Positions 461 to 49,712 of a stretch of 64,000 bases of DNA are shown here, one piece after another (position 1 is the stretch's first letter; each line of letters starts with the position of its first letter). The stretch spans positions 6,291,933-6,355,932 of the forward strand of contig NC_057749.1 in the NCBI RefSeq assembly GCF_004010195.1, in the 5' to 3' direction. Source of the stretch: Chiloscyllium plagiosum. Lineage: Eukaryota. The position numbers were made by a program, and so were the translations under genes. The notes beneath the pieces were generated by a model. It did no database searches and was not told the origin of the DNA. It saw only the letters and a program-made list of their open reading frames with translations.

Positions 461-624
461 CTGTTGATTGTTCTGGACAGATGAATTCAACTCCTGACCA
501 ATTTAAAGGATCCCATACCCACAGCCAGCAGAACAAACGTAACATACAAAAGACCCTGCAAGGACTGCAACAAACATTACATTGGACAAACCAGCAGGAA
601 TATGTAAGCACCAATTAGCCACTG

Positions 625-963
625 GTGGTCGCTGGGAATTTGTTTCCCTAGTTGAGGAGACTAGGGCCCGTGGGCACAGCCTTAGAATTAGGGGTGGTCA
701 ATTTAGAACGGAAATGAGGAGACATTTCTTCAGCCAGAGAGTGGTGGGCCTGTGGGATTCATTACCATGGAATACAGTGGAGGCCAGGACATTATATGTC
801 TTCAAGGCAGAGATTGATAAATTCTTGATCTCGCAAGGAATTAAGGGATATGGGAAGAGTGCGGGTAAGTGGCGTTGAAATGTCCATCAACCATGATTGA
901 TTGGCGGAGTGGACTCGATGGGCCGAATGGCCTCACTTCCACTCTATGTCTTATGGTCTTATG
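625..963 (+). mobile_element. CR1 LINE 3' end
   Basis: Encodes RARGHSLRI...FFSQRVVGLWDSLP...FKAEIDKFL and ends in a TATGGTCTTATG tail. Near-identical subfamily copy at 10373-10736. Confidence 0.9.
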
Positions 964-1236
964 ACCAACTATCACTAATATCCATACACACAGACGCAGA
1001 GGGACATCAGCTTGACAGGGACAACATATCCATCCTGGGATCAGCCAAACAAAGACACTCACTGGAATTCCGGCAGGCCTGGCATTCAAACTGGAACTCC
1101 ATCAATAAATACATCGATTTGGACCCCATTTGCCAATCTCTCAGATCCAGAACCAGAAATGATACCACCCACCAAAACAGACCAAGACACATAAATTGCC
1201 AGCGGTACAAAATGCTAGCGCTTCACGAGAGACTCG

Positions 1237-1270
1237 CTGATGATGTTAGCTAGTATGGTGATGCAACGTC
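1237..1270 (+). ncRNA. Degenerate hammerhead-like motif (family D, Penelope terminus)
   Basis: CTGATGA-TGTTAGC-TAGTAT-GGTGAT-GCAACGTC; the core GAAA is mutated to GCAA. Confidence 0.55.
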
Positions 1271-1469
1271 TGAAAACAAACCCATCATCAGCAAGCAGAC
1301 AACCTGCTAATCCTCTTGTCAAAAGTAAGAATGACAGCCACACAAATTCAACTCACACCCAAACAAGGGAGAGAAAAGGCCACTAAAACCAATATATCGA
1401 GTACCCTGCTTCCTGTTCACAGTCAGTGATATACATTTATTTGTATTAGCTTTTGGAGCTGGATTCATA

Positions 1470-3302: not shown

Positions 3303-3520
3303 CATGATGTGGAGGTGCCAGTGTTGGACTGAGGTGGACAAGTCAGAAGTCACATGACACCAGGTTATAGTCCACCAGGTTTATTTGAAATCACAACCTT
3401 TTGGAGCCCTGATCCTTTATTAAGGTGAAGTGACCTTGGTGAAGGAGCAGTGCTCCGAAAGCTCGTGATTTCAACAACCCTGTGGGACCACAACCTGGTG
3501 TTGTGTGTGACTTCTGGCTT
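3303..3520. mobile_element. Fold-back hammerhead cassette (family B)
   Basis: Inverted arms; GAAGGAGCAGTGCTCCGAAAGCTC motif; 12-bp TSD TGTTAAGGGAAA (3291-3302/3521-3532). Confidence 0.8.
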
Positions 3521-3734
3521 TGTTAAGGGAAATGCAGACCATCAAAGGTGATGGACAGGTAGGGAGAGTGGGAAGAGACTCAATCAAAATGGAATTGAAA
3601 GGGGTTGAACATGTTGATAAGAAAATATTTGTAAATGAGGGGTAGTTGGAACACAGAGGATGTTACTTGAGAATTGTGAGACTGAGCAATTCAATTAACT
3701 ATTTTTTTTAAATGTTTGGAATATAGGAAGCTCC

Positions 3735-5345: not shown

Positions 5346-5434
5346 AAAAAATATAAAACCATGCCTGGTTCATACTGCCCTCTAATGGCTATCAGGCCCG
5401 TCTCTTTTATAAAGTGCCAGACACTTATAGAATG

Positions 5435-5580
5435 ATGTGGAGGTGTCATGTTGGACTGGGGTGGATAAAGTCAGAAGTCACACAGCGAAGTGACCTGATG
5501 AAGGAGCAGTGCTCCGAAAGCTTGTGATTTCAAATAAACCTGTTGGACTATAACCTGGTGTCATGTGACTTCTGACTTTG
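5435..5580 (+). mobile_element. Fold-back hammerhead cassette (family B)
   Basis: Short inverted arm plus long arm; 7-bp TSD TAGAATG (5428-5434/5581-5587). Confidence 0.8.
5493..5527 (+). ncRNA. Minimal type-I hammerhead ribozyme motif, intact core (family B)
   Basis: CTGATGA-A-GGAGC-AGT-GCTCC-GAA-AGCT-T-GTGA: core bases present, perfect 5-bp stem II, palindromic AGCT in place of helix III. Confidence 0.75.
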
Positions 5581-6721
5581 TAGAATGTGGCTGGTTCCTT
5601 TTTGGCCCTCAAACATTGAGCGAGTATTTCATCAGACTCCACTTCAGGATTAATTCCCTTAGGTTAAACACTTCAGAGAGCCACATTTAGCAACTGGAAA
5701 AAGTGAACTTGCTGGGGGTCTGAGCTTTCGGCAACTCAAACAAGTTAAAAGAAGCCTCTCCACACGGAGAGTAGCGAGGATGTGGAAGTCACTGTAGCGT
5801 AGAGTGGTTTGAATTATAGAGTACAGAAGCAACTCTTTGTCCCATTAGGTCTACACCGACAAAATTACTCTAATTCTGCATTAGCCCCATTGGTGAGGTG
5901 AACAATACAACTGCATTTGACGGAAAACTGGATTAATGCCTGAGGGAGAAGGTTATGGTGTCAGAGTTCAATGAAGTGGATTGAGAGAATGTTAATGTGG
6001 AACATGGGCCATTTTTGCATAGAACTGCACTAGGAATATGAATAAATTAACTGATATTTCAACTAAGCCTTGACTTGTCGAATACATTATTGGAAACATA
6101 GGATCTGCCACCCTGCCCAATTGAATTGAACACAATTGCACTCATTGACAGCCTTGAATAGACTTCAAACATTAGGCTTTCTTTTAAGAGCGATAGATAC
6201 AGTTTAAATTCAATATACTCTTTCTTTTTAATTTACTAAGGATCTGACTGTGCATCAAAATATTTTTGTTTAGTTTTTAAAAATTGTCTTCAATTGCATT
6301 CCTCATAGGTGATGGATTGGCACTCTGATTATAACAAACTTTTACGTAATAAGAGCATTTGGAACCATGTCAATGAAATTTGACCTCCTCTTAAATACAT
6401 CAACATATAATTATTTCTTAAAAGCCAATGTTTCAAGGTTTTTGAAATGACGGCTCATGGCATGTTCAGCATCCACTAAAGTGAAACTCGTAAAAGTACT
6501 TTCCTCAGAGTTTTGCTAGGGTTTGGAAAATGCTGCCTGGGAGAGTGATGGGGGCAGATTCCACTGGAGGCTTCAAAAGAGAGCTGGATGCATATTTGAA
6601 AGTGATGAAGTTAGAGGGTTATGGAAATAGGGTTGGAGAATGAGACTAGTTGGGTAGCTCTTTTGTAGCCGGTATAGATATGATGGGTTGAATGGCCTCT
6701 GTCTGTACTGTAAATTCTCTG

Positions 6722-17055: not shown

Positions 17056-17202
17056 GCTGTGGTTCTGTTCGCCGAGCTGGAAGTTTTTGTTGCAAACGTT
17101 TCGTCCCCTGTCTAGGTGACATCCTCAGTGCTTGGGAGCCTCCTGTGAAGCGCTTCTGTGAAGCAACGAGCACCCGAGCTACAAATCTTCTCACAAACTT
17201 TG
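17056..17202 (-). mobile_element. Penelope terminus fragment with hammerhead (family D variant)
   Basis: Exact 12-bp TSD TATAAAGACAAT (17044-17055/17203-17214). The last ~40 bp are the element end in the opposite orientation (compare 46840-46870). Confidence 0.8.
17091..17132 (-). ncRNA. Minimal type-I hammerhead ribozyme motif, intact core
   Basis: GCA-CTGAGGA-T-GTCACC-TAGACA-GGGGAC-GAA-ACGT-T-TGC: stem I GCA/TGC, stem II with one mismatch, palindromic ACGT. Confidence 0.75.
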
Positions 17203-18513: not shown

Positions 18514-18648
18514 GAGAATTGGTGCTGGAAAAGTACAACAGGTCAGGCAGCATCGGAGGAGCAGAAGAATCTTGCCTGACCTGTCGCGCTTTTCCAGCAC
18601 CACACTCTCCACTCTAATCTCCAGCATCTGCAGTCCTCACTTTCACCT
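18514..18648. mobile_element. Fold-back family A cassette lacking the hammerhead core
   Basis: Inverted arms; 18-bp TSD ATCA(C/T)TATTATTTGGGTC (18496-18513/18649-18666). Confidence 0.85.
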
Positions 18649-20456: not shown

Positions 20457-21308
20457 TGACATAGAGTCATAGAGATGTACAGTAGGGCTATAGACCCTTC
20501 AGTCCAACTCATCCATGTTGATCAGATATCCAAAATTAATGTAGTCCCATTTGCCAGCATTTGGCCCATATCTCTCTAAACCCTTCCTATTCATATAACC
20601 ATCCAGATGCCTTTTAAATGTTGTAATTGTACCAGCCTCCACCACTTCCTCTAGTAGCTCATTCCGTACACACACTGCTCTCTCCGTGAAACAGTTGCCT
20701 CTTAGGTCCCTTTTATATCTTTCCCTCTCACCCTAAGCCCATGCCCTCTAGTTCTGGACTCCCCCACCACAGGGAAGAGACTTTGTCTATTTACCCTATC
20801 CATGCCCCTCATGATTTTATAAACCTCTATAAGGTCAACCCTCAGTCTCTGACACTCCAGGGAAAGCAGCGCCGGCCTATTCAACCTCTCCCTATAGCTC
20901 AAACCCTCCAACCCTGGCAACATCCTTGTTAATCTTTTCTGAACCTTTTCAAGTGTCAAAACATCCTATAGGAGGGAGATCACAATTGCACACAATATTC
21001 CAAAAGTAGCCTAACCTGTATAGCCACAACATGACCTCCCAACTCCTATACTCAATGCTCTGACCAATAAAGGCAAGCACACGATATGCCATCTTCACTA
21101 GGCGAAAGTGAGCTTTGCAGATGCTGGAGATTAGAGTCGAGAGTGTGATGCTGGAAAAGTTCAGCAGGTCAGGCAATATCCGAGGAGCAGGAGAATCAAC
21201 GTTTCAGGCAAAAGCCTTTGATCAGGAAATGCCTTCTTCTCTATGACTCTACTTTCAAGGAACTATGAACCTGCAATCCAAGGTCTCTTTGTTCAGTAAC
21301 ACTCCCCA
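20457..21308 (-). mobile_element. CR1/HER1-type LINE, truncated, with a family A insertion
   Basis: ORF KVQKRLTRMLPGLEGLSYRERLNR; ATGACTCT tail. Confidence 0.9.
21101..21228 (-). mobile_element. Family A hammerhead cassette
   Basis: 15-bp TSD with 2 mismatches, ATGCC(A/T)TCTTC(A/T)CTA (21086-21100/21229-21243); core mutated to CTGATCA. Confidence 0.8.
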
Positions 21309-22713: not shown

Positions 22714-23047
22714 TAGAGTCAAAAAGTGTGGCACTGGAAAAGCACAGCAGGTCAGGCAGCTATTTCAGCCACTCCCCCTCTCCCACCCTCCCCAACATTC
22801 CTGAGGAAGAGCTTATTCTCAAAATGTCAACTCTCCTGCTCCTCAGATGCTGTGTTTTTCCAGTACCACACTTTTGGACTCTGATCTCCAGCATCTGCAG
22901 TCCTCACTTTCTCTCAGTATCCAAGGAACAGGAGAGTCGACATAAGCCCTTCATCAGGGTCTCCTCGGATACTGCCTGGCTTGCTGTGTTTCTCCAGCGC
23001 CACAATTTTTGACTGACTTTCCAGCATCTGCAGACCTCATTTTCTCT
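22714..23047. mobile_element. Composite family A cassette (fold-back copy containing a second copy)
   Basis: Two CCAGCATCTGCAG...TTTCTC ends plus a split inverted arm. Confidence 0.75.
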
Positions 23048-23734: not shown

Positions 23735-25418
23735 TAGAACATAGAACATAGAACATAGAAAAATACAGCGCAGTACAGGCCCTTTGGCCCTCGATGTTGT
23801 GCCGATCCAAGCCCACCTAATCTACACTAGCCCACTATCCTCCTTATGCCTATCCAATACCCGTTTAAATGCCCATAAACAGGGAGAGTCCACCACTGCT
23901 ACTGGCAGGGCATTCCATGAACTCACGACTCGCTGAGTAAAAATCTAACCCTAACATCTCTCCNNNNNNNNNNNNNNNNNNNNNNNNNNNNNNNNNNNNN
24001 NNNNNNNNNNNNNNNNNNNNNNNNNNNNNNNNNNNNNNNNNNNNNNNNNNNNNNNNNNNNNNNNNNNNNNNNNNNNNNNNNNNNNNNNNNNNNNNNNNNN
24101 NNNNNNNNNNNNNNNNNNNNNNNNNNNNNNNNNNNNNNNNNNNNNNNNNNNNNNNNNNNNNNNNNNNNNNNNNNNNNNNNNNNNNNNNNNNNNNNNNNNN
24201 NNNNNNNNNNNNNNNNNNNNNNNNNNNNNNNNNNNNNNNNNNNNNNNNNNNNNNNNNNNNNNNNNNNNNNNNNNNNNNNNNNNNNNNNNNNNNNNNNNNN
24301 NNNNNNNNNNNNNNNNNNNNNNNNNNNNNNNNNNNNNNNNNNNNNNNNNNNNNNNNNNNNNNNNNNNNNNNNNNNNNNNNNNNNNNNNNNNNNNNNNNNN
24401 NNNNNNNNNNNNNNNNNNNNNNNNNNNNNNNNNNNNNNNNNNNNNNNNNNNNNNNNNNNNNNNNNNNNNNNNNNNNNNNNNNNNNNNNNNNNNNNNNNNN
24501 NNNNNNNNNNNNNNNNNNNNNNNNNNNNNNNNNNNNNNNNNNNNNNNNNNNNNNNNNNNNNNNNNNNNNNNNNNNNNNNNNNNNNNNNNNNNNNNNNNNN
24601 NNNNNNNNNNNNNNNNNNNNNNNNNNNNNNNNNNNNNNNNNNNNNNNNNNNNNNNNNNNNNNNNNNNNNNNNNNNNNNNNNNNNNNNNNNNNNNNNNNNN
24701 NNNNNNNNNNNNNNNNNNNNNNNNNNNNNNNNNNNNNNNNNNNNNNNNNNNNNNNNNNNNNNNNNNNNNNNNNNNNNNNNNNNNNNNNNNNNNNNNNNNN
24801 NNNNNNNNNNNNNNNNNNNNNNNNNNNNNNNNNNNNNNNNNNNNNNNNNNNNNNNNNNNNNNNNNTGTCTATTTTCACCCTTTCCAGAATTTTCAACACC
24901 TCTTCCCTACATACCTCAAAGCCATTCATTCTACTTAATTGTGACTCAGTATTCACATCGACAACAGTGTCCTGTTCCTGAGTGAATACTGACGAAAAGT
25001 TTTCATTCAGTGTCTCCCCAATCTCTTCCGCCTCCACACGCAACTTCCCACTACTATCCTTGACTGGACCTATTCCTACCCTAGTCATTCTTTTATTCCT
25101 GACATACCTATAGAAAGCCTTAGGGTTTTCCCTAATCCTACAAACTAAGGACTTTTCATGTCCCCTCCTTGCTGCTCTTAGCTCTCTCTTCAGATCCTTC
25201 CTGGCTACATTATAACTCTCAATCGCCCCAATTGAACCTTCACGCTTCATCTTTACATAGGCCGGCCTCTTCCATTTAACAAGGGATTCCAATTCCTTAT
25301 TAAACCACGGCTCCCTCACACGACCCTTTCCTCCTGACAGGTACATACTTATCAAGGACACTCAATAATTGCTCCTTGAACAAGCTCCACATATCAATTG
25401 TGCCCATGCCTTGAAGCT
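23735..25418 (-). mobile_element. Young CR1 LINE (ORF2 middle to 3' end) spanning an assembly gap
   Basis: Open frame EPWFNKELESLVK...RENPKAFYRYVRNKR...NENFSSVFTQE; (ATAGAAC)n tail at 23735-23760. Confidence 0.9.
23964..24865. other. Assembly gap (902 N)
   Basis: Run of N. Confidence 1.
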
Positions 25419-25451
25419 AAGCTCTGTCGCTGCTCAAGATCTGAAACAAAA

Positions 25452-25675
25452 ACAAAGTCAGAAGTTACACGACACCAGATTATAGTTCAACAGGTTTTTT
25501 TGAAGTTGCAAGATTTTGGAGCGCGGCTCCTTCATCAATAAAAGTTGCATTTCACCTGTCGAAGGATCAGCGCTGTGAAAGCTTGTGACTTTAAATAAAC
25601 TTGTTCCACTATAACCTGGTGTCATGTGACTTCTACCTTTATCCACTCCAGTCTAACACCAGCATCTCCACAATA
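25452..25675. mobile_element. Fold-back hammerhead cassette (family B)
   Basis: Inverted arms with two decayed cores; TSD TGAAACAAAA (25442-25451/25676-25685). Confidence 0.8.
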
Positions 25676-26597
25676 TGAAACAAAAGCAGAAAATGCTGGA
25701 GTGTCTCAGTAGGTCTCCCAGCATTTGTGGAGAGAGAGAAAAAGAATTTTTGGCACGGACATTACAAGGGGTGTCAATCAAAGTTTAATTTCTTTATGTT
25801 AGTGCTAAGCTCCACATTTCTCACTGGAAATTCTGACCATGACTTCTTCATAAATGCGAAGCATTACTGAAATCAATCCAGACCTCCATAGTGCAGGATG
25901 ATCAGGGGAGGTCAAACCGTCCCCACTTTAACAGCAATCAAGGGGCTGTCTTCTGAGATTTACATGTCCAGCAGCACATCTAGAGACTTTGATAGCTACT
26001 AGAACTTTCAATTTTGTGGACAATTCTCACAAAGTCTGTTGTTTCAGAGATTCCTCAGGGTCTCAAACACTTGATTCAATTTTTTTTTTGGTCCAACGGC
26101 TGTCTGACCATAAAATATCTGCACCAATGTTTCAAGCCGAACAGAACACTGCTTTACAATTCAATTCTTCTCCAGAACTGTGGATTCTTTACAAACTTAT
26201 CATGGAGAAAGCTAAGTCAGGATTTATCTTCAGGCTAACCTTCAAAGTAACATTATATATTATACTTTCGTGTAAACTACTACATTACTTAGTAAACATA
26301 TGCTAGGCTCTAACTTACAGGCACATAAGATAATGATTAATCTGTCTTCTTTGAGTATTCATGTCCATGTGCTCTCATTGTATCTTTCAAAGATCCACAC
26401 ATTTCCATGTGCTTTCTTGTGAGTTTTGTCCACCCACTCTGTGATATTTATACCCAGTGATGTGCATCTTTATAACATCATCACAAGTGTGCTTCAGAAT
26501 TCCATCTCTTATGCAACAGTGCTGGGTTTCTTTGTCATGAAGCCCTCGTTTTGGTGAGTTAACTGAGGAAGCCTACTGATTGTCCATTGGAAACATC

Positions 26598-27205
26598 GGG
26601 GAGAAGGTACGGACTGCAGATGCTGGAGATGAGAGTCAAAAAGGGTGGCGCTGGAAAAGCACAGCTAGTCAGGCAGCATCCTAGGAGCAGGAGAGTCAAC
26701 ATTTTGGGCATTAACTCTTCATCAGGAATGTTTTTAAATTAGCTTACTTACAGTGTGGAAACAGGCCCTTTGGCCCAACAAGTCCACACTGACCCTCCGA
26801 AGAGCAACCCACCCAGACCCATTCCCCTACATTTACCCCTTCACCTAACACTGCGGGCAATTTAGCATGGCCAATTCATCTAACCTACACATTTTTGGAC
26901 TGTGGGAGGAAACCGGAGCACCCGGAGGAAACCCACACAGACACGGGGAGAATGTGCAAACTCCACACAGACAGTTTCCTGAGGTGGGAATTGAACCTGG
27001 GTCTGTGGCGCTGTGAGACAGCAGTGCTAACCACTGAGCCACCATGCTGCCCCCTAATGTTGTGGGGGGAGCGAAGTGGGCTGAGAGATAAATGGGAGTT
27101 GGGGTGGAGGTGAGGTAACTGGGAAGGTAGATGCAGGTGGGGGTGATGCTGATAGGTCAGAGGGGAGGGTGGAGCAGATAGATGGGAAGGAAGATGGAAA
27201 GTCAA
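26598..27205 (-). mobile_element. Longer family A element interrupted by an HE1 SINE
   Basis: Cassette at 26598-26730; its G-rich continuation at 27062-27205; AATGTT duplicated around the SINE. Confidence 0.7.
26740..27054 (-). mobile_element. HE1-type SINE, complete
   Basis: Head, body and tail all present. Confidence 0.9.
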
Positions 27206-29749: not shown

Positions 29750-29963
29750 AAATGAAAACAGAAAGTGTTGGAGCAGCTCAGCAGGCCTGGCAGCAATGTG
29801 TGGAGGGAAATCAAAGTTAACATTTCGGGTCTCTCAGAACCCATAATTCTGAGGAAGGTTCGCTGGATCTGAAACGTTAACTTTGATTTCTCTCCACAGA
29901 TGCTGCCAGACCTGCTGAGCTTTTACAGCAATTTTCTGGTTTCAGTTTATGGCATCCACAGTT
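29750..29963. mobile_element. Fold-back hammerhead cassette (family C)
   Basis: Inverted arms; CTGAGGA-AGGTTCGCTGGATCT-GAA-ACGT-T at 29849-29878; TSD CTTATGCTT (29741-29749/29964-29972). Confidence 0.8.
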
Positions 29964-30351: not shown

Positions 30352-31316
30352 TTGGGAGTGCATTGGACTCCACTATTCAAGAAAGAAGGGAGACAGAAAG
30401 CAGGAAAGTACAGGTGGTTAGTGAAACATCTAACATCGGAAAATATGTAAGAATATATTGTTAACCACTTAGAAAATCATAAACACAGTCAGGCAGAGAG
30501 AGTCAGCATGGATTTGTAAAAGGAAAACCATGTTTGAGAAGTAGTTAGATTTCTTTGAGGACAAGTAAAGGAGATAAAAAGGGACCAGCAGACACATTAT
30601 ACTTAGATTTCCAGAAGGCATTTCACAAGGTGTCAGATCAACTTGTGTTATGCAAAATAAGAGCTCATAGTGTAGGGAGCAACATAGTGGCACGGTTGGA
30701 CGATTGGCTTGCTAAGTGGAAGCAGACACTGAGCATAAATGGGTCATCTTTGAGTTGACAGGATATAACAAGCAGTGTATCACAGGGATCAGTGTTAGCA
30801 GCTTCAATTTTTTTTGCAGTCTATATACAGCAACTTTTGTTTGAACCTTATGAACTGGCACTCTCAACCTCAATACCATGAAGTTCACTGTATTCTTCAG
30901 TCCAATTATTGCTGTTGTTCAAATTTATGTAGCTCGATGTAAATATACTTGTTGCTCATCCAAATGGCTCCATGAAATATGGGTGATTCAATTTCTCTTC
31001 AAACACTGTGATGTTTGAGTGGCCAGTTCAGAGTGCAAGTGAGAAGGCTCTCTGCCAGTAAGTTTTATTTAAGGTATAATTGCATTATTATTGAAATGAT
31101 TTGTGGTGTAAATAAAATATAATAGTAATGTGTATAACCCCTGCATTATGTTTCTATTACTTAGCGTGTGTTTTTACATTGATTATGTGGATCTCTTATG
31201 ACAATGCCCCTCCTTCAACAAGACTATTCTGTCTTTGGACATTTTTACAGAGGTGTTGTAAAAGCAGAGGTTCTGATATGACTGGGAATAACTACCTGGA
31301 AAAGTTTTTAAGTGTG

Positions 31317-32078
31317 CAAGGTTTGTGAAGGTTGGTAGCTCAGATTGAGGTTTAGGGTGTAGGTTTGCTCGCTGAGCTGTAGGTTTAATATCCAGACGTT
31401 TCATTATCTGGCTAGGTAACATCATCAGGGGAGACCTCCAAGTGAAGCGAAGCTGTTGTCTCCTACTTTCTATTTATATCTTTCTTCTGGATGAGGTTCC
31501 TGGGGTTTGTGGTGATGTTATTTCCTGTTCGTTTTCTGAGGGGTTGATAGATGGTATCTAGATCTATGTGTTTGTTTATGGCGTTGTGGTTGGAGTGATA
31601 GGCCTCTGGGAATTCTCTGCTTAGCCTGCCCCAGGATAGATGTGTTGTCCCAGTCGATGTGTTGGTTTTTTTCCTCCGTGTGTAGGGCTACGAGGGAGAG
31701 AGGGTAGTGTCTTTTTGTGGCTAGCTGGTGTTCGTGTATCCTGGTGGCTAACATTCTTCCTGTTTGTCCTATGTAGTGTTTGTGGCAGTCCTTGCATGGA
31801 TTTTTGCAGATGACGTTGATGTTGCCCATGGGATGTACTGGGTCTTTTAAGTTTGTTTGTTTTTGTTTGAGAATGTTGGTGGGTTTGTGTGCTACCACGA
31901 TTCCGAGGGATCTTAGTAGTCTGGCTGTCATTGCTGAAACTTCTTTGATATATGGTAAGGTGGTTAGGGTTTCTGGCTGTGTTTGGTCTGCTTGTCGTGG
32001 TTTGTTCCTGAGGAATCTGTGCACTGTATTTTTTGAGCATCCGTTCTTCTTGAATACGTTGTATAGGTGGTTCTCCTC
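31317..32078 (-). mobile_element. Penelope-like element, 5'-truncated (RT C-terminus, GIY-YIG, terminus)
   Basis: ORF 31518-32024 TLPYIKEVS...NVICKNPCKDCHKHYIGQTGRMLATRIHEH...DWDNTSILGQAKQR; exact 14-bp TSD AGTTTTTAAGTGTG (31303-31316/32079-32092). Confidence 0.92.
31393..31430 (-). ncRNA. Hammerhead motif at the Penelope terminus (family D), core intact
   Basis: CTGATGA-T-GTTACC-TAGCCA-GATAAT-GAA-ACGT-C, about 90 nt downstream of the GIY-YIG ORF. Confidence 0.7.
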
Positions 32079-32212
32079 AGTTTTTAAGTGTGTTTTTTTT
32101 TAAAGAAACACTTGTACAATGAAAGGGGAATGGTCAGTTCTCTCAGTCCTAGTTGGTTTGGTTTGGTTTGGTTTTAGCAAGATGTTTGGATTGCAGCTGC
32201 TGGTTATGTTTT

Positions 32213-32310
32213 AGCTGGGGACCCAGAGAAGCTGCTGGGAGACCAGAGAAGCTGCTGGGAGACCAGAGAAGCTGCTGGGAACCCAGAGAGGTTGCTGGGA
32301 ACCCAGAAAA
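32213..32310. repeat. 20-21 bp minisatellite inside the LTR
   Basis: GAAGCTGCTGGGAGACCAGA repeated about 4.5 times. Confidence 0.9.
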
Positions 32311-32843
32311 GCAGTTTCCATGCTGATTCTCTCTTCTTTGTGACATCTCTCCCCTCAGAAACTGGGTTTGATTTTATTTTTTTGCCAAGAGGATGTTTGT
32401 GGGGATATTGCAGATATTTGGAACATCATCATCAAATTGCAATAGAGTCAATTGGTTTACAGATAAGTTAATTTATCTTAAGTTTGGTTCTGTTTTGCTT
32501 GTGTTTCATTCAATAGTCTGTGAATAAATTCTGATTTGTTTAAAACTAAGTGGTTTAATCAGCTGCATCGCTCCTGGGATATCCACTTTACACCTGCTTA
32601 AAACAACTAGAAAAGTTAGGGTCTGGGCTACCTTCTTGAAATGTTTTAGGGGGTCTGGCCTGGTCCATAATACTCTTGATTATTTGGAATATTTGATCAA
32701 CCCAACACACTCCTAGTCCCATAGGTTCTGGATAATAAAACATTTGCTGAAATTAACTTGGATAAAAGGATCAAATGCATGTTGATAAATTTGCTGGTGA
32801 TACAATGACAGTCAGCGAAATAAGTTGTGATGTGGCTATAAGG

Positions 32844-33217
32844 AATCTTAAAGTGTGGCACTGGAAAAGCACAGCAGCTCAGGCAGCATCTGAGGAGCAG
32901 GACAGTCAACATTTCAGGCATAATCCCTTCTTCAGGAATGTCCAAGTGATTTGGCTTATGGCCAAAACATTGACTCTCCTGCTCCTCAGCGCCACACCTG
33001 CAGCGCCACACTTTCAGACTCCGATAGCCACATCACAACTTATTTCCAGGGCCACACCTTTCGACTCTGATCTCCAACGTCTGCAGTCAGATGCTGCCTG
33101 ACCTGCTGCGCTTTTCCATCGCCACACTTTCAGACTCCGATAGCCACATCACAACTTATTTCCAGGGCCACACCTTTCGACTCTGATCTCCAACGTCTGC
33201 AGTCCCCACTTTCTCCC
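32844..33217. mobile_element. Complex fold-back family A cassette with internal duplication
   Basis: ATAAGG TSD (32838-32843/33218-33223); 85-bp exact duplication at 33004-33088/33120-33204. Confidence 0.8.
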
Positions 33218-34570: not shown

Positions 34571-35279
34571 TTCCACACAGGGTTGAGTAGTGGCAAAGTG
34601 CCCCACCTGGTGGTCATGCCTGGAACTGCCAAAGTGGTAACAATTTGAATATTCGTTTCAGCCAGGATTTTTACCTGGCTTCCGGATGCAAAATCCAAGA
34701 AGGAAATTCAGCTTCTTTTCCATAAGCCGTCCTGGGAATTTGTTGTGTTCCTTGATGCATTCCGGCTGGATGGATGAGAGAGTTAAAGTGACCCCAATTT
34801 AGGTGACTCGGTGGACACCAAATAAATTTTGTAGGTCAGTGGATTCTGGAAGGCAGCCACAGTCAGTCCCTGATTGTAATTGCTTCTATCAAAGTGCAGG
34901 TAAGTGGTGTGCAGTGATCCATTATCCGAAAATGGTCCTTTTAATTATTAAGATAGGGCAGCTTCTCACTTTCCGCAGTTATTTCACTGTTAAGAAATGC
35001 ATGCAGCATTCTGTTAGCTACTCCACCTGCTGTGCCCACAGTATTTTCAGCTCAGTGGGTAGAAAAAGCTGTGCTGATTGTTCTTATACTATGAGTGCCA
35101 GAAGAGACAGAGAGAGGGGAGATTAGAAAGAGGGGGCGGGGGAGAAAAAGCAACCTGCTGGGAATGTGAGGAGAGAACACAGACACTCTGGAAGTGCACA
35201 ACAGATGCACAAACTGGTGTGAAGTGGAAAGGCAGATTGATACTCCAAGTAGAGATCTTAGCTGACTTGAAAAGCGAAG

Positions 35280-35565
35280 TTAAAAATCACACAACACCAA
35301 GTTATAGTCCAACAAGTTTAATTGGAAGCACTAGCTTTCGGAGCAGTTAGATTCCCTACGATGTGGAAACAGGCCCTTCGGCCCAACCAGTCCACACCGA
35401 CCCTCCGAAGAGTAACCCACCCAGACCCATTTCCCTCTGACTAATGCACCTAGCACCATGGCCAATTTAGCATGGCCAATTCACCTGACCTAGTGCTTCC
35501 AATTAAACCTGTTGGACTATAACCTGGTGTTGTGTGATTTTTAACATTGTACACACCCCAGTCCA
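35280..35565. mobile_element. Fold-back family B cassette enclosing an HE1 SINE 3' fragment (35347-35490)
   Basis: 15-bp TSD ACTTGAAAAG(C/T)GAAG (35265-35279/35566-35580). Confidence 0.85.
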
Positions 35566-35649
35566 ACTTGAAAAGTGAAGGCAAACAAACTATGGGTCAG
35601 GCTGAGCAAAAGGTGGCAGACAAAGTTTACATGAGGAGAGAAACTTCTG

Positions 35650-36310
35650 GAACATTTGAATCAGGTGCAGAATGAAGCCATTCGGTCTTTCAAGCCTGCT
35701 CCACCACTCAAATAGGTGGCTCTGTTAGTGTTTCAAATTCAGCACACCCACCCAACCCCAACACTCCCACTCAGTGGCTTCCCCCTGTGTCAAGAATCTA
35801 TCTACCTCAAATCCTAGAAATAATCAATGACCTTCTGAGGTACAGAATTCTAAAGACATGTAACCCTTTGAGAGAGAAAAAAAATTACCCTCATCTCTGT
35901 GAGTATGAGCCAAGTGCAGGCAGGTGGGAATAATTTAGTTTGGGATTGTAGTTGGCATGGACTGGTTGGAGATAGGTCCATGTTTCCATGCTTTATGACT
36001 TTATGACTCTATCCTGAAAAGACACTTTTAAAAGCATCCCCCAGATCTGGATTTACTTACAACAGGAAAGAGCCTTTCCTGTGAGCACTTCGTCAAGACA
36101 ATTCACGGTCTTATACACTTCAGTCAACTTTATCAGATCAAGGTTGAAGTCCAATCTTCTAAACTCCAGTGAAAGCAAGACCAACCTGTCCAATGTATCT
36201 TCCTAAGACAATCTGTGAATTCCAGCTATAAATCTATGAAATAATCTCTGAACCAACTTCATTGCATTTATATCCTTCCTTACGTAAGGAGACTAAAACT
36301 CTAATAAAGT
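35650..36310 (-). mobile_element. Old CR1 3' region with a plus-strand CR1 tail inserted (about 35900-36012)
   Basis: Decayed CR1 motifs; ATGACTTTATGACTCT tail. Confidence 0.6.
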
Positions 36311-37133
36311 CCCTGGGGACCCCACATGCAGCACCAATAGCATCCACCGCTGAGTTTATGACATTACTGGTATCACTGCAGCTGCTACATTAGTCCGCCC
36401 TTGCCCCAACTGATGCCTCGAAATGACAAATTATCAGGGATAGGGCAAGAATGTGGTAGGCATGGCAGGGACAGTGGTTAGAGGGGGGAAAAAAGAGATT
36501 GACAAACCAACATGTCAGTCTTGCAGGGCAAAGGGGAATTCTTTAAGCAACCTTAAGGATCAGCACCTCATCTTTTGACTTGACACTTCACGGACCTCCA
36601 GACCAAATGCTGAGTTTAACAACTGCAGACTGACCCCTATTTTGGTTCCTTTTTCTTTGCCTGTTTCAGGGTCTCCCTTACTTTCAGTTTCTGACAGTAA
36701 CAAATAGCATATTTTTAGGCATATCTTTGATTTCTTTTCTTGCTTCATTGCCATTCCCTTTAGCCCTGAAAGTGTAAGTCTCCCATCATTCATCTCTCCC
36801 GTCTTCCACCAGTAGAACTGGCAGCTAATAGTTGGGCCACACTGTGTTCACCAATCCCCTTTCTAGATATTTCAAAAGTAACCTGTTCAGAATTATAACA
36901 CATCCCTGGAACAGATAGGAATTGAACCCCTGCCTCCTGCTCCAGGGATAGGGGCACTATGATGCACCATAAGAGCTCCCAAATTCTCCTTCTAAATATT
37001 CTTAATTAACCTATTTAGGAATGTTACTATACACTGCTGGACTTGAACTCCTGGTTCAGAGGTAGTGACACTGCCACTCCACCTGCCTATACTAAGTCTC
37101 AGGATCTGTTTGATCAACAATGTAAAGGACAAG

Positions 37134-37361
37134 AGAGTGGTGCTGGAAAGGCACAGCAGGTCAGGCAGCATCCAATGGAGCAGGAGAATCGACGTTTCGG
37201 TCAAAAGCCCTTCATCAGGAATGCTGATCACATTCCTGATGAAGGGCTTTTGCCTGAAACATCAACTTCCCTGCTTCTTGGATGCTGCCTGACCTGCTGC
37301 GCTTTTCCAGCACCACACTCTCACCTCTGATCTCCAGCATCTGCAGTCCTCACTTTCTCCT
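37134..37361. mobile_element. Fold-back family A cassette with two divergent hammerhead motifs
   Basis: Cores at 37191-37218 (-) and 37236-37263 (+); exact 15-bp TSD AATGTAAAGGACAAG (37119-37133/37362-37376). Confidence 0.9.
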
Positions 37362-38104
37362 AATGTAAAGGACAAGGCATTCATGAGTCTTAGAAAGGAT
37401 AGGCATTTGCCTCTTTTCTCACTGAAGTCTGCATTTCTAACATTGCCCAGTTTCTGGACGGAAGGTCACCAGCCTGAAACCTTGACTTTGTTTGTTGACC
37501 CCTGCAAATGTGGCCCGTTGCCTGGAGAGTAGTTCCGGCAATTTTGGGTTTTATTTCATATTCCCAGCTGTTCCCCAGAATGCTGCTTTATAATTAGTGA
37601 AGACATCCTGAGGGTCATTTTCCACTCAGACTTTCAGGTGAACTCTGATTGATTTAGCTTATCATTCCCATTAAAATGTATGGGACATCCAATTCTGTCT
37701 CCAGTCTCCTAGTTTTGAAGAGAACAGGGTGATTTAATAACATAGAATTTGAGTATTGCTGGAAAAAAAACATATTGAGGAAAAGTTTTTTTCTTTCTTT
37801 ACTTTTGTTCTTTGATTTTTTTTCTCTTGTGTGCTCTAGAGCCAGATCTGTTACCACATAGGGCTCTGAACCTTGCTGAAAGAGAAACACATAAAATGCA
37901 CTTATTTCAACACAACAGATTAGAGACTGCCATTCTCCACTTCATTTCTCAAGGTAATGCCCTAAATCAACCTGCCAGGTATAAATTTAAACAAACCTCG
38001 ACAGTTACTTGTCAATCATCATTGAACTGGCACATCATCTATGGCAAGTCCTCTACCACTCACCAACCAATCAGCACTCTCTCATACAGGATAATTTGTT
38101 GTTC

Positions 38105-39424: not shown

Positions 39425-40365
39425 ATGGCTGTTAGGGCAATTGCATGTATCTCCTGCAGAATGTCTCTGCCGGCCACATCTGTGGGAAATGGACCCAACT
39501 CCAACTCCTCGAAAACCGAGTTAGGGAACAGGAGCTGGAGCTGGATGAACTGTGGATCATCCGGGAGGCTGAGGGGAAAATTGAGAGGATGTACAGGGAG
39601 GTGGTCACTCCTCAGGCAGAGGATAAGGACAGCTGGGTTACAATCAAGGGGAGGAAAGGGAACCGACAAACAGAGTAGGGATCCGCTGTGGCCGCTCCCC
39701 TCAGCAATAAGTACACTGATGGGAATGGCCTACCAAGGGAAAGCCATAGTTGGCAGGTCTCTGGCACTGAGCCTGGCACTATGGCTCAGAAGAAAAGGGG
39801 GAGAATAGAAAAGCACTCATGGCAGCGGACTCAATAGACAGATTGACAGGAGATTTTGTGGTCAGGAACAGGACACCAGGAAGATATGTTGTCTCCCCGA
39901 TTCCAGGATCCAGAATGTCGCCGATCAGGTTTACAAGATTCTGAAGGGGGAGGGTGAGCAGCCAGAAATTGTGAAACATATTGGCACCAGTGACGTAACC
40001 AAGAAAGGATTGAGGATCTGAAAAGTGACTACAGAGAGCTAGGTTCGAAGCTGAAGAGCAGGACGAGTAGAGTAGTGATCTCAGATTTACTACCGGTGTC
40101 ACAGGATAGTGAGGTGAGGAACAGTCAGCGAGTGCAGCTTAACATGTGGCTGCGAGGCTGGTGCAGGAGGGAGGGCTTCAGATACTTAGACCATTGGGAT
40201 ACCTTCAGGGAAGGTGGCACCCTGTACATGAAAGATGGGTTGCACCTGAACTGGAGAGACACAAATGTTCTGGGTAGGAGATTTGCCCGTGTGGTTCGGG
40301 AGGGTTTAAACTGGTTTGGCAGTGGAGTGGGAACCAGAGCTATACATCTGAGAGAGGGGTAGTTG
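39425..40365 (+). pseudogene. CR1 ORF1 remnant (Cys motif, coiled coil, SGNH esterase-like domain)
   Basis: MAVRAIACISCRM; ENRVREQELELDELWIIREAE; WLRGWCRREGFRYLDHW...KDGLHLN; frameshifted. Confidence 0.8.
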
Positions 40366-40429
40366 TAGATGAGGCAGTGACAGGATGTAGTGAATCTATC
40401 AGGGTGATTGTTCATGTGATGAAAGAAGG

Positions 40430-43400
40430 AATTGGTTAAAGTGTGTCTGTTTTAACACAAGGAGTGTCAGAGATAAGAGTGATGAACTTAGAGTATGGAT
40501 CAGTACTTGGGACAGTGATGTTGTGGCCATAATGGAGATGCGTGTTTCACAGGGCCAGGAATGGATGCTAGATGTTCCAGGGCTTAGAATATTTAAAAAG
40601 AAAGAAAAGGAAGGTGGAAAGAAAGGAGGGGGTGTAGCACTGCTAATTAGAGAGTGCGTCACAGCTACAGAAATGAAGGTTTTCGAGGAAGGTTTGTCAG
40701 TATGGGTGGAAGTTCGGAACAGCAAAGGAGCAGCCACCTCACTGGGGGCTTTCTACAGACCCCGCAACAGCAGCAGGGAGATCGAAGAGCTCATAGGTCA
40801 GCAGATTTTGGAAAAAATACAGATGTAGCAGGGTTGTTGTTATGGGTGACTTCAAATTGACTGGAACCTCTTAAGTCCAGATGGTTTTGATGGAGTCGTT
40901 TTTGTCAGGTGTGTTCAAAGGGTTTCCTTACTCAGTATGTAGACACGCTGATGAGGGGAGAGGCCATTTTGGATTTGGTGCTCAGCAATGAGCCAGGACA
41001 GGTGTCGGATCTTGCAGTGGAAGAACACTTTGGTGAGAGTGGCCACAACTGCCTTACATTTACCATAGCCCTCGGGAGGGAAAGGAGCAGTTACCATGGC
41101 AAGATATTTAATTAAGGAAAAGGAAATTATGAAGCTATCAGAAAGGAGTTGGAAAGAACAGATTGGGAGCAATTGTTCCACAAAATGGGCACAACAGACA
41201 TGTGGAGACTGTTTAAGGAGCAGTTGTTGCGAGTGATGCACAAATTTGTTCCTCTGAGACAGGCGTGAAGGGGTAAGATTAAGGAACCTTGGATGACGAG
41301 AACAGAGGAGCTTCTTGTCAAAAGGAAGAAGGCAGCTTACATAAGGTGGAGGAAGCAACGGTCTAGCACAGCTGTAGAAGGTTACAGGCTTGCTAGAAAG
41401 GAGCTCAGAAATGGACTGAGGGGGCACAAAAAAGGCTTGGCGGGAAGGATTAAGGAGAACCCAAAGGCATTTTACTCATGTGAGGAATAAGAGAATGATC
41501 AGAGATAAAATAGGGCCAGTCAGGGGTAACATAGGGAACTTGCGCATGGAGTCTGAGCAGATAGGGGAAGCCCTAATTGAGTTTTTTCTCGGTTTTCACT
41601 AAGGAAAGGGGCCTTGTTGTGAATGAGAACTTTGAGGAGCTGGGAAATAGGCTTGAACAGATCATGATTGATGGAGGTGATGTGCTGGAAATTGAGATAA
41701 AGATTGATAAGTCCCCAGGGCCAGACCAGATTTATCCTCGGCTGCTCCAGGAAGTGAGAAAGAAGGTTGCTAAGCCACTGGCGAAGATCTTTGCTTCCTC
41801 ACTGTCCACGGGAGTGGTACCAGAGGATCGGAGGGAGGCAAATATTGTTCCTCTTTTCAAAGTGGGAAATGGGGAAATCCCTGGCAATTACAGGCAAGTC
41901 AGTCTTACATCTGTGGTCAGCAAGGTTTTGGAAAGAATTCTGAGGGATGGGATTTGTGACTATTTGGAAGAGCACGGTGTGATTAAAGGCAGTCAGCATG
42001 TTTGTGAGGGGCAGGTCATGCCTCACAAATCTTATTGAGTTCTCTGAGGAGGTGGCGAGACAGGTTGATGAAGGTCGGGCAGTGGATGTGGTGTACATGT
42101 ACATCAACAAGGCATTTGATAAGTTTCCCCATAGTAGGCTCATTCATAACGTCAGGAAGTATGAGATACAGAGAGATTTGGCTCTCTGGAATCAGAATTG
42201 TTTGGCTGACAGAAGGCAGGGAGTGTTTGTAGGTGGAAAGTATTCTGCCTGGAGGTCAATGGTGAGTGGTGTCCTGCAGGGCTCTGTTCTTGAGCCTCTG
42301 CTCTTTGTAGTTTTGATAAATGACTTGGATGAGGAGGTTGCGGGGTGGGTTAGTAAATTTGCCAAAGATACAAAAGTTGAGGGTGCTGTTGATAGTATCG
42401 AGGGCTGTTGCAGGCTGCAGTGTGACATAGACAGGATGCAGAGCTGGGCTGAGAAATAGCAGATGGAGTTCAACCTGGATAAATGCGAAGTGATGCATTT
42501 TGGAAGGTCAAACTTGAATGCTGAATATAGGATCAAAGACAGGATTCTTGGCAGTGTGGAGGAACAGAGGGATCTTGGTGTTCAAGTGCATAGATCCCTC
42601 AAAGTTGCCACCCAAGTCATAGAGTCATAGAGATATACAGCATGGAAACAGACCCTTCGGTCAACCCGTCCATGCCGACCAGATGATATCCCAACCCAAT
42701 CTAGTTCCACCTGCTAGCACCCGGCCCATATCCCTCCAAACCCCTCCTACTCATATACCCATCCAAATGCCTCTTAAATGTTGCAATTGTACCAGCCTCC
42801 ACCACTTCCTCTGGCAGCTTATCCCATACACATACCACCCTCTGTATGAAAAGGTTGCCCCTTAGGTCTCTTTTATATCTTTTCCCTCTCACCCTAAACG
42901 TAACCCCTCTAGTTCTGGACTCCCACACCCCAAAGAAAAGACTTTGTCTATTTATCCTATCCATGCCCCCTATGATTTTGTAAACCTCTGTAATGTCATC
43001 TCTCAACCTCCAACGCTCCAGGGAAAACAGCCCCAGCCTGTTCAGTCTCAACCTATAGCTCAAATCCTCCAACCCTGGCAACATCCTTGTAAATCTTTTC
43101 TGAACCCTTTCAAGTTTCACAACATCTTTCCGATAGGAAGGAGACCAGAATTGCACGCAATATTCCAACAGTGGCCTAACCAATGTCACGCAGAGCCGCA
43201 ACATGATCTCCCAACTCCTGTACTCAATACTCTCACCAATAAAAGTAAGCATACCCAAACGCCTTCCTCACTATCCTAACTACCTGCAACTCCACTTTCA
43301 AGGAGCTATGAACCTGCACTCCAAGGTCTCTTTGTTCAGCAACACTGCATAGGACCTTACTATTAAGTGTCTAAGTCCTGCTAAGATTTGCTTTCCCAAA

Positions 43401-44362
43401 ATGCAGCACCTCGCATTTATCTGAATTAAACTCCATCTGCCACTTCTCTGCCAATTGGCCTATCTGGTCCAGATCCTGTTGTAATCTGAGGTAACCTTCT
43501 TCACTGTCCACTACACCTCCAATTTTTGTGTCATCTGCAAACTTACTAACTGTACCCCTTATGTCCACATCCAAATCATTTATATAAATGACGAAAAGCA
43601 GTAGACCTAGCACTGATCTTTGTGCCACACCACTGGTCACAGGCCTCCAGTCTGAAAAACAACCCTCCACCACCACCCTCTGTCTTCTACCTTTGAGCCA
43701 GTTCTGTATCCAAATGGCTAGTTCTCCCTGTATTTCGTGAGATCTAACCTTGCTAACCAGTCTCCCATGGGGAACCTTGTCGAATGCCTTACTGAAGTCC
43801 ATATAGTGGATAGGATTGTTAAGAAACCATATGGTGTTTAGGCTTTCATGAATAGGGGGATTGGGTTTAAGAGCCGTGAGGTATTACTGCAGCTCTACAA
43901 AACCCTGTGAGACCACACTTGGAATATTGTATCCAAATCTGGTCGCCCTATTATAGGAAGGATAAGGAGGCTTCGGAGAGGGTGCAAAGAAGGTTTACCA
44001 GGATGCTGCCTGGACTGGAGAGTTTGACTTACGAAGACAGGTTGACTAAGCTCGGGCTTTTCTTTCTGGAGAGAAGGAGGAAGAGAGGTGACCTGATCAA
44101 GATATACAAGGTAATAAGAAACATGGATAGAATCAATAGCCAGAAACGTTTCCCCAGGGCAGGATTGATTGGCACGAGGGGTCATAGTTTTAAGGTGTTA
44201 GGAGGAAGGTATAGAGGAGATGTCAGAGGTAGGTTCTTTACACAGAGAGTTGTGAATGCACAGAATGCATTACCAGTGGTGGTGGTGGAAACAGAGTCAT
44301 TAGGGACATTTAAGCGACTGTTGGACATGCACATGGACAGCAGTGAATGGAGGGGTGCGTAA
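40430..44362 (+). pseudogene. CR1 ORF2 remnant (AP endonuclease plus reverse transcriptase)
   Basis: GGGVALLI, FYRP, AILDLVLSNE, KSPGPDQIYPR, NYRQVSLTS, KAFDKFPH, GVLQGSVL, FAKDTK; several frameshifts and stops. Confidence 0.9.
42618..43804 (-). mobile_element. Younger CR1/HER1-type LINE nested in the full-length CR1
   Basis: ORFs MDFSKAFDKVPHGRL...FADDTKIGG and LVRPLLEYCVQFWSP; host ...GCCACCCAAGT resumes as GGATAGG. Confidence 0.92.
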
Positions 44363-44887
44363 GTTAGGTTATTTTATTTTAGATTAGGAATAATCCTCGG
44401 CACAACATTTGGGCCAAAAGGCCTATTCTGTGCTGTACTTTTCTATGTTCTATATTCTACCTAGATTGGAAGTTTGAGTTATAAGGAGAGGCTGGATAGG
44501 TTGGGATAGGTTTTTCCCTTGAGGATAGGAGACTGAGGGATCATTTTATTGTGGTCTATAAAATGATGAGGGGTTAGATAGCCAACAGCTTTTCCCCAGG
44601 ATAGGTGAGTCTAAAACTAGAGGGCATAGGTTTAAAGTGAGAGGGGAGAGATACAAAAGGGCCCAGAGGAGCTTTTTTCACACAGAGGGTGGTGAGTGTC
44701 TGGAATGGTTTACCAAAGATAGTGGTGAAAGTGAATACAATTTTTTTATGGAAGAAATGTTTAGGCAGGTTCATGTGGGGTGGCAAATGGGATTAGATTA
44801 ATTGTGAAATCTGGCCAGTTTGGGCACGTTGGGCTGAAGGGCCTGCTTCCATGATGTCAACCTCCATGACTAAGTGGAAGCCCATGG

Positions 44888-46832: not shown

Positions 46833-47312
46833 TAGCCAGTTTTGAGAAGATTTGTAGCTCAGGTTGAGGTTCTGGATATAGGTTTGCGCGCTGTGCTGGA
46901 AGGTTCGTTTTCACACGTTTCATTGCCATATTAGGTAACATCATCAGTGAGCCTCCAGATGAAGCACTGGTGTCTTGGGCCGCTTTCTATTTATGTGTTT
47001 AGATTTTCTTGGGTTGTTGATGTCATTTCCTGTGATGATGTCATTTCCTGTGTGAGACTTCATAGAAGTATGGCATTCCAACAGGAACTCTATCAATAAA
47101 CACATTGACTTGGATCCCATTTACCACTTGCAAGTACAGGAAATGACATCACCACTGGAAATGACATCACCAACCCAAGGAAACCTAAACGCATAAATAG
47201 AAATTCGGCCATGCCACCAGTGCTTCATCTGGAGGCTCACTGATGATGTTACCTAGTATGGTGATGAAATTTCTGAAATGAACCTTCCAGCTCAGCGAGC
47301 AAATCTACATCC
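46833..47312. mobile_element. Penelope-derived fold-back insertion with two family D hammerheads
   Basis: Inverted arms about 46866-47051/47137-47315 around the GIY-YIG C-terminus (WHSNRNSINKHIDLDPIY); exact 15-bp TSD AGACATGGTTAGTAC (46818-46832/47313-47327). Confidence 0.9.
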
Positions 47313-49085: not shown

Positions 49086-49453
49086 AAGATTGGTGGCTAA
49101 AAATCTACCCAAAGAAACTTCTAACGGAACCACCAATCAGCTGAAGACATCTCCTATAAGTGTGTTCTCTTAAGAAAAATCTGATGCAATTGTAGTGGAT
49201 GTTAATTATTTGCAACAGTTTTGGACTTCCATCTGTCTCTCCTGCATTTGTTCATTTTGTACCAGCTCCAAGTTAAGTGATGCTTCAATTTTAAAACTTG
49301 CATTTGTATTTTCAAATCCCTCCGCGGCCTTACACTTCCCAATCTCTGTAAAATCCTCCTCCAATGCAATAGACGAGGATATCTATCCTTGAATTCTGGT
49401 ATCTTGCATATCCCCAGTGTGAGCCATCCTACCCCACTGTCATCGTACCTTCA

Positions 49454-49712
49454 TGATGTGGAGCTGCTGGTTTTGGACTGGGTAGACAAATTTAACACAG
49501 CACTAGGCTGCATCCCCTTTCTAAGTGATTAAAGGTTTAACAGCCATCTAAGTTTGTCTAATATATCACATCAGTTGTTTGATCTTTGATCTATAAATTC
49601 TGTGTACTACATATCCTGCTCCACTAGCTACCTGACAAAGGAACAGCATTCCAAAAGCTTGTACTTTCACATCAACCTGTTGGACTATAACCCAGTGTTG
49701 TGAAATTTTTAA
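49454..49712. mobile_element. Fold-back family B cassette, variant subfamily
   Basis: Exact 13-bp TSD CATCGTACCTTCA (49441-49453/49713-49725). Confidence 0.85.

Follow-up and report, generated by a model that had tools for sequence, protein, structure and literature searches.

Introduction

Insertions of Penelope-like elements (PLEs) are described as containing an inverted copy that is truncated on its 5' side, together with a tail of 30-40 bp that is often confined to one end (PMC8557442), and inverted pseudo-LTRs (pLTRs, the PLE terminal repeats) and short 3' extensions are listed as PLE traits in curation guidance (PMC8969392). In vitro, the PLE protein of the anole nicks and extends both target strands, two internal RNA start sites delimit the tail, RNA beyond the start sites is required (the first 172 nt of the ORF), and uncleaved RNA is used as template; the accessible part of that study gives no strand difference in start-site use, does not demonstrate coupling, and places the beginning of the ORF at helix II (PMC11167929). 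In Schistosoma, opposite-strand hammerhead pairs 100-700 bp apart have been attributed to truncated PLEs (PMC4209133). Non-LTR retrozymes, by contrast, are defined as tandem arrays, and a proposal of PLE-derived retrozymes in vertebrates includes one chondrichthyan (bioRxiv 10.64898/2026.07.22.740005). The PLE literature accessible to us leaves the origin of the inverted repeats and of the one-sided tail open, and the geometry of the ends bears on that question.

Here we describe 12 fold-back cassettes of four families (A-D) in the window, that is, the whole 64-kb stretch of Chiloscyllium plagiosum DNA that was analysed. The best explanation is that each cassette is one dead-end insertion of a PLE pLTR (probability about 0.8); that the cassettes are PLE insertion products of one kind or another is very likely. 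The basis is a single target-site duplication (TSD), two fixed outer ends that lie a tail length apart, inner junctions that are unlike one another, a hammerhead motif, and the link of family D to an ORF.

Results

The Cassette at 37119-37376

The first-pass annotation had reported a 228-bp insert, with two copies joined head-to-head in an exact 15-bp TSD, and this reading holds: the TSD lies at 37119-37133 and 37362-37376, and the last 2 bases of its left copy also fit the end of the adjoining arm. The tail-less family A arm (37132-37223, minus strand, 92 nt) runs from the hammerhead 5' edge to the inner fixed end at reference position 89-91, and the tailed arm (37231-37361, plus strand, 131 nt) runs from the hammerhead 5' edge to the outer fixed end. 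Between them lies a 7-nt junction or loop (37224-37230) that is found only in this cassette, and the two arms are about 87% identical. The 40-nt PLE tail (37322-37361, plus strand) is present in a single arm and appears as an unaligned outer overhang of 40 nt. In both arms the CUGAUGA core lies five bases downstream of the start. The minimal type I hammerhead motif of the tail-less arm (37191-37218, minus strand) has an intact core and an intact palindromic helix III with one G.A mismatch in helix II, while in the motif of the tailed arm (37236-37263, plus strand) a substitution disrupts the helix III palindrome. The insert is predicted to fold as a single RNA hairpin (-151.5 kcal/mol, z -17, 0/200 shuffles).

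Hammerhead Motifs

A motif search gave nine hammerhead hits with the features of the minimal type I ribozyme, namely the CUGANGA and GAAA cores, a bulge before helix II, the G10.1-C11.1 pair, and a palindromic helix III. Rfam at gathering scores gave no matches, so the hammerheads are recognised by motif only. Across 10 family A copies helix II shows two-sided changes in two of four pairs, and unconstrained cofolding predicted a helix-III-type dimer only in the 19530 copy of the six tried. The shark motifs resemble the minimal PLE hammerheads (PMC4209133) in the unpaired base before helix II, the G-C first pair and the loopless palindromic helix III; they differ in that most shark copies are mutated, and in that the sense ribozyme of a cassette transcript would pair with the antisense arm. 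Two divergent hammerheads had been claimed as part of the design. Two motifs are indeed present at 37119, each with a helix mismatch, but the arrangement is not general: in alignments read by eye, cores are absent from the cassettes at 18514 and 35277, and a single core is found in those at 5432, 49452, and 17056.

Twelve Cassettes in the Window

All seven other sites that had been listed are inverted cassettes, with TSDs of 10-18 bp and 0-1 mismatch. Four more were found, at 17056-17202, 22715-23046, 32842-33216, and 46833-47312; the recurrent design in several families stands, with four families in place of three.

Family A forms three further cassettes. The one at 18514-18648 has no hammerhead cores, a 39-nt tail and an 18-bp TSD with 1 mismatch. 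The one at 22715-23046 is split by a solo copy of family A nested within it (about 22761-22914), and its TSD is weak and decayed. The third, at 32842-33216, is compound and has a weak TSD. It contains its own left flank in inverted form: 23-25 nt of the flank occur at 32817-32839, 33024-33046, and 33140-33162, the inverted copy having later been duplicated in tandem. The inverted copy may stem from a snap-back that overshot into target DNA, or from a quasi-palindrome template switch at a later time.

Five cassettes belong to family B. At 3303-3523 the left arm is tailed (37 nt), the hammerhead edge ends both arms, and the TSD is 12 bp. At 5432-5581 the tailed arm is only about 51 nt, the hammerhead is in the tail-less arm, and the 10-bp TSD has 1 mismatch. 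The cassette at 25452-25675 (35-nt tail, 13-bp TSD with 1 mismatch) lies where a family C copy ends, having inserted at that copy's inner end (25439-25451 and 25673-25735). At 49452-49712 the tailed arm is about 55 nt, the tail-less arm runs upstream of the hammerhead, and the 13-bp TSD is exact. The cassette at 35277-35567 has half a tail and a 15-bp TSD with 1 mismatch, and a 143-nt 3' piece of a high-copy SINE-like repeat (35347-35489) lies exactly at its junction with no duplication of its own; the piece may be a template jump or a later insertion. The SINE label of the window repeats is our assumption. The tail of this cassette (35546-35567) is short by about 20 nt, and in a contig of organism B 27 unaligned letters precede 35565, perhaps the remainder of the tail.

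The single family C cassette (29753-29963) has an outer overhang of only 19 nt and a 12-bp TSD with 1 mismatch. Family D forms two. At 17056-17202 a tail-less arm (minus strand) faces an arm that is the tail alone (about 17164-17202, plus strand) within an exact 12-bp TSD. At 46833-47312 the left arm has a 38-nt tail, the tail-less arm starts in GIY-YIG C-terminal coding sequence, and the 15-bp TSD is exact.

The surrounding sequence is rich in repeats, and about 25.8 kb of the window consists of self-matching repeats. SINE-like repeats and fragments of decayed LINE-like RT and endonuclease sequence occupy 40000-44400 and many shorter pieces, an assembly gap (a run of N) lies at about 23960-24870 beside a LINE-like ORF remnant, and a 20-bp minisatellite of about 5 copies (32214-32312) is located just upstream of a solo family D copy. 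ARAGORN reported no genes. Pattern scans found no loci in metagenome contigs, genome contigs, or viral contigs.

Outer Ends, Tails, and Inner Junctions

TSD length varies from 8 to 18 bp among the cassettes. The TSD score is at least 9 in 9 of the 12, compared with 0/400 random boundary pairs; scores in the remaining three are 8, 7, and 6, values that the null reaches in 1, 5, and 25 of 400. A MITE or another TIR DNA transposon would also place inverted arms within a TSD, but the ends are asymmetric, the TSD ranges over 8-18 bp, solo arms have their own TSDs, copies are 5'-truncated, and there is a link to an RT ORF, so that we regard this origin as practically negligible; a DNA transposon is excluded by the asymmetric ends together with the variable TSD length. 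The earlier exclusion of MITEs is upheld on both counts, since neither symmetric fixed termini nor a constant TSD length was found.

The cassettes could also have arisen by two independent insertions at one spot, or by later DNA rearrangement of a solo copy. Nesting does occur (22761 in 22715, and 25452 where a family C copy ends), rearrangement has affected the 32842 cassette, and the search for an empty site, which had been suggested as a check, gave no skip joint among the best 15 of 1945 joints. Against this, one TSD spans both arms and is above the null in 9/12, and a later fold-back of DNA cannot supply a tail or upstream sequence that is missing from the other arm. We consider such an origin very improbable.

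Tabulation of arm breakpoints and TSD lengths within the window bore out the variable TSD length, and it reversed the expectation for the breakpoints, in that the outer ones are fixed and the inner junctions are the variable part. It had been proposed that one arm reaches a shared end while the other breaks variably. The outer end of the tail-less arm is instead a second fixed site, at reference position 89-98 in family A and 89-94 in family B. With end positions placed by hand from alignments, 6 of 7 non-terminal ends fall within one 11-nt window in each of families A and B (P about 0.003 against uniform ends), and 15/16 arm ends of family A and 11/12 of family B lie inside either of two 11-nt windows; two family A pieces were excluded from this count, 22915-22958, which continues an interrupted arm on its inner side, and 33087-33138, which is a duplicate. 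The arm ends have no poly(A), as had been stated. The outer overhang measures 35-40 nt in 8 of the 9 cassettes in the table (about 39 nt at 17056), which omits 22715, 32842, and 35277. A tail of the 30-40-bp class at one end only was therefore found in the cassettes measured, the exception being the 19-nt overhang of the family C cassette at 29753.

Every one of the 12 cassettes pairs a tailed end with a tail-less end (0.5^12 = 2.4e-4), while tailed and tail-less ends occur at about 8:8 among solo copies, the solo ends of family C being loosely placed. A very short tail-less arm could escape detection; this is not so in the tailed solos at 21100, 47617, and 31316, because their TSD abuts. Solo copies occur with the one end as well as with the other, so double priming is not a requirement. 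The arms also differ in their 5' reach. The tail-less arm extends further 5' in 8 of the 12 (5432, 17056, 18514, 22715, 32842, 35277, 46833, and 49452), both arms reach equally far in four (3303, 25452, 29753, and 37119), and the tail-less arm is the shorter in none, so all eight unequal cassettes show the same polarity (two-sided P 0.008). Both rules are post hoc and come from 12 cassettes of one window, and their counts include irregular cases: 22715 after removal of the nested copy, the compound 32842, the half-tailed 35277, and 29753 with its 19-nt overhang.

These two regularities bear on how the second arm is made. If the nicks primed on two separate RNAs, each at its own start site, and the cDNAs were then end-joined, fully overlapping arms would need no strand displacement; the PLE protein is a predicted dimer (PMC11167929), and a comparable course has been proposed for L1 (PMC2837659). 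Such dual priming alone predicts neither the mixed ends in 12/12 nor the one-way polarity of 5' reach, and we think it unlikely. Arm identity is little help here: it is 0.88 within and 0.84 between cassettes in family A, and 0.85 and 0.82 in family B, barely above background, so a single RNA template is not proven.

Alternatively, the cDNA may prime itself on an antisense template or a single cDNA may snap back, after which the endonuclease would resolve the inverted repeat and leave a one-sided tail. Self-priming has been proposed from junction palindromes (Arkhipova et al., 2013, PMC3846280), and the symmetric junctions with 6-7-nt loops at 3303, 29753, and 37119 and the inverted copy of its own flank at 32842 speak for it. 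The flank copy could, however, be a later replication template switch, and the cassettes with tail-only or nearly tail-only arms and little overlap (17056, 49452, and 5432) require a second priming. Snap-back from a tail-primed cDNA was rejected, since it predicts a tailed arm that reaches further 5', which was observed in 0/12. Self-priming or snap-back as the general route is accordingly, in our estimate, quite unlikely.

Family A arms that reach the hammerhead mostly stop there, 10/12 of them at reference positions 1-8, and the TSD abuts this end in four solo copies; no such stop at the hammerhead 5' edge is seen in the family D arms. Only one of 17 family A arms (18514-18571, minus strand) begins exactly at the cleavage site predicted for the hammerhead. 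The idea that hammerhead cleavage sets the 5' ends was rejected, a cleavage-site start being found only in that arm.

Coding Link of Family D and Upstream Sequence

The cassettes had been described as having no ORF. This does not apply to family D, whose cassette at 46833-47312 holds the C-terminus of a GIY-YIG ORF. Both of its arms align to a shark RT/GIY-YIG protein (P0002 against 47056-47304, E 1e-11; against 46883-47066, E 1e-12). Family D gave a Pfam RVT_1 match and weak GIY-YIG matches, the latter below the curated cut-off; the Penelope/Poseidon label is one that we assign from the motif. Its reading frame is open from the hammerhead ATG through the tail. The solo 5'-truncated family D copy at 31316-32082 (minus strand) contains a GIY-YIG coding remnant, a hammerhead, a tail and a 10-bp TSD, and on sequence grounds ties the end sequence to the RT and GIY-YIG ORF; for the GIY-YIG-type ORF remnant at 31521-32099 (minus strand), carpet-shark proteins are six of the seven best matches, at 57-70% identity. 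Another family D GIY-YIG remnant (488-1300, plus strand) is interrupted by a later insertion of a different repeat (about 605-955).

The upstream search for RT/GIY-YIG parents thus succeeded for family D, and for families A, B, and C no parent ORF adjoins within the window. A protein search with the translated cassette gave 15 candidates and none at E<=0.01, which is weak evidence; a Pfam scan of two window ORF remnants returned no families, and no full master copy (a pLTR-ORF-pLTR partial tandem) is present in the window. Families A-C have the hammerhead, the two ends and the tail in common and no conserved frame through the tail. From this shared anatomy they very probably originate from PLEs.

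Copies that continue upstream of the hammerhead exist in families A, B, and D. In family A the extension is about 35 nt at 22761, and at 26730 there is about 150 nt of C/T-rich upstream sequence past a later insertion; the two extensions align over only about 25 nt. In family B two or three copies extend upstream, among them 49592 and 55174. A fixed 131-nt unit for family A is ruled out by its two extended copies. The SINE-like repeat upstream of 26730 was considered as a template jump; this was rejected, as the repeat carries a 6-bp duplication of its own and is followed on the far side by further family A sequence.

DNA and RNA Reads

In contigs of three public DNA runs, loose ends with unrelated flanks (agreement 0.32-0.37) were found at 37360-37362, the tail end of family A, and at 35545, the inner end of family B, so that the same ends recur elsewhere. 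As the tail at 35545 is short, some of the copies in that pile may be tailed ones. No loose-end pile was found at the family A inner end among the matches listed. Contigs of organisms B and C cover 37340-37800, which suggests that they share the 37119 insertion, only 22 letters lying inside the element against a 31-letter bridging rule. End-to-end joints of copies (37322-37361 and 35545-37362) were seen in 3-19 contigs per run, and together with the position of the 25452 cassette they possibly reflect a preference for insertion at PLE ends.

Families A-C could instead be short non-autonomous hammerhead RNAs, retrozyme- or SINE-like and mobilised in trans by PLE proteins, with the cassette as their own replicating unit; the first-pass annotation had put the cassettes forward as a candidate non-autonomous ribozyme retroposon class. 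The tight family A 5' ends, the TSD that abuts them in solo copies, and the parent ORF not found for these families are in keeping with this, as are apparent head-to-tail joints of about one unit length, which the three DNA runs show in 3, 21, and 10 contigs. PLE-derived non-autonomous retrozymes have also been proposed in vertebrates in the accessible part of the preprint (bioRxiv 10.64898/2026.07.22.740005). A replicating cassette is, however, at odds with an inner junction that differs in every cassette and with inner joints at other loci in only 1-6 contigs per run each, among the matches listed. The window has no tandem hammerhead array (0/10 TRF rows), the 5' ends lie upstream of the ribozyme rather than at its cleavage site, and the sequence goes on upstream in two copies of family A and in two or three of family B. 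The ORF-bearing family D forms the same cassettes, and the cassettes do not include the downstream RNA that is required in vitro. Nothing indicates that they replicate as units. With the pattern already known for PLEs, the class claim was given up; the tight family A 5' ends and the few unit-length tandem joints leave it a residual chance, and we hold it to be improbable.

The RNA sample was about 2% of one poly(A) single-cell run, with 8623 reads on the window. Poly(T) loose ends at 35302 (432 reads) and 35305 (347 reads) mark poly(A) sites of family B (35302-35322, minus strand), located 15 and 12 nt past an ATTAAA hexamer (35322-35317) and before a G/T-rich tract, and 616 reads pass through an intact hammerhead core into upstream sequence. 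These reads come from copies genome-wide, possibly from host transcripts that use the signal, and are no proof of transcription at the 35277 locus. The family B signal is functional and present in very many copies, and it may terminate host transcripts. No pile of RNA ends was seen at the hammerhead in this poly(A) library, a type ill-suited to the cleavage question. The family B poly(A) RNA ends about 25 and 60 nt upstream of the two outer ends, so the arms are not templated from the 3' end of that RNA. The upstream poly(A) site and the stops of 10/12 family A arms suggest, speculatively, initiation near the transcript 5' end and run-off.

Discussion

The architecture of the cassettes is already described for PLEs (PMC8557442, PMC3846280, PMC4209133), and the Penelope link that had been proposed is supported both by this pattern and by the RT/GIY-YIG ORF of family D. 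Like canonical EN+ PLE insertions (PMC8557442, PMC3846280), the shark cassettes have a head-to-head inverted copy, a tail at one end, a TSD of about 8-10 bp or more, solo pLTRs, and heavy 5' truncation; they differ in being very short (135-480 bp) and dense (12 per 64 kb). The strict pairing of tailed and tail-less ends and the polarity of 5' reach are not among the features given for PLEs in the accessible text of these two papers. We found no published statement of the pairing and polarity rules or of a twin-priming model for PLEs, including in the literature on shark PLE hammerheads, in a search that covered work outside subscription.

The scheme proposed below would match PAc (Poseidon of Anolis), in which two start sites bound the tail, both strands are nicked and extended, and the template hammerhead is uncleaved; family D also shares the ORF start at the hammerhead, whereas families A-C have no conserved frame through the tail (PMC11167929). 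Inverted insertions and coupling of the two sites are left unaddressed in the accessible part of the PAc work. L1 twin priming likewise leaves two inverted pieces of a single element within one TSD, with second priming at the top-strand nick (PMC2837659). L1 primes on poly(A) and at a variable internal site, and the fragments have an internal deletion, whereas the shark cassettes have two fixed start points and arms that usually overlap in sequence. Non-LTR retrozymes, as presented in the available portion of the preprint (bioRxiv 10.64898/2026.07.22.740005), are also short, non-coding, equipped with a type I hammerhead, and related to PLE ends; they form head-to-tail arrays with a ribozyme per unit, while the shark cassettes are head-to-head and are single events bounded by a TSD.

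The earlier suggestion of extreme truncations made by snap-back or second-strand priming is supported, and for the formation of the cassettes we infer, at somewhat better than even odds, coupled twin priming. The PLE protein would nick both target strands about 8-18 nt apart, and a single RNA would serve both nick 3' ends, one of which would use the inner start site and the other the tail-end start site. Of the two cDNAs, the one begun at the inner site would lead; in families A and B it would usually halt at the hammerhead 5' edge, which may be a strong stop or the 5' end of the RNA itself. The cDNAs could be joined directly to give a tail-only arm, as at 17056, where the tailed arm is the tail alone and the geometry is that of L1 twin priming (PMC2837659); alternatively, they could be joined once an overlap has arisen, either through strand displacement or because the leading cDNA snaps back. 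Snap-back is consistent with the symmetric loops of 6-7 nt and with the inverted copy of the flank at 32842, although the flank copy may be a later template switch. Host repair would then fill in an inverted repeat with a tail on one side. The finished cassette would itself be no template, with its hammerhead locked in a hairpin.

Going beyond this, we tentatively consider, as a possibility we would sooner doubt than accept, an undescribed step of PLE mobilization in which a protein dimer primes both strands on one RNA, one per start site with the inner one leading, and in which the default product is a short run-off cDNA. Because the poly(A) site is upstream of both start sites, initiation would fall at the junction of the 5' pLTR and the ORF, and the run-off cDNA would resemble retroviral strong-stop DNA. 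A jump to the RNA 3' end would be needed for ORF copying, and solo and fold-back pLTRs would be failed jumps.

As a claim for a new class the cassettes carry little weight: they are shark examples of a described PLE pattern, their families are new members at most, and repeat databases or the supplements of the retrozyme preprint may already contain them. For annotation, they caution that such hairpins are neither MITEs nor structured-RNA genes. The very many short shark cassettes are genome-wide material for testing twin priming against antisense self-priming, and their geometry yields predictions for the existing in vitro PLE system. If the proposed step is true, failed jumps would account for the large surplus of lone hammerheads that animal genomes contain.
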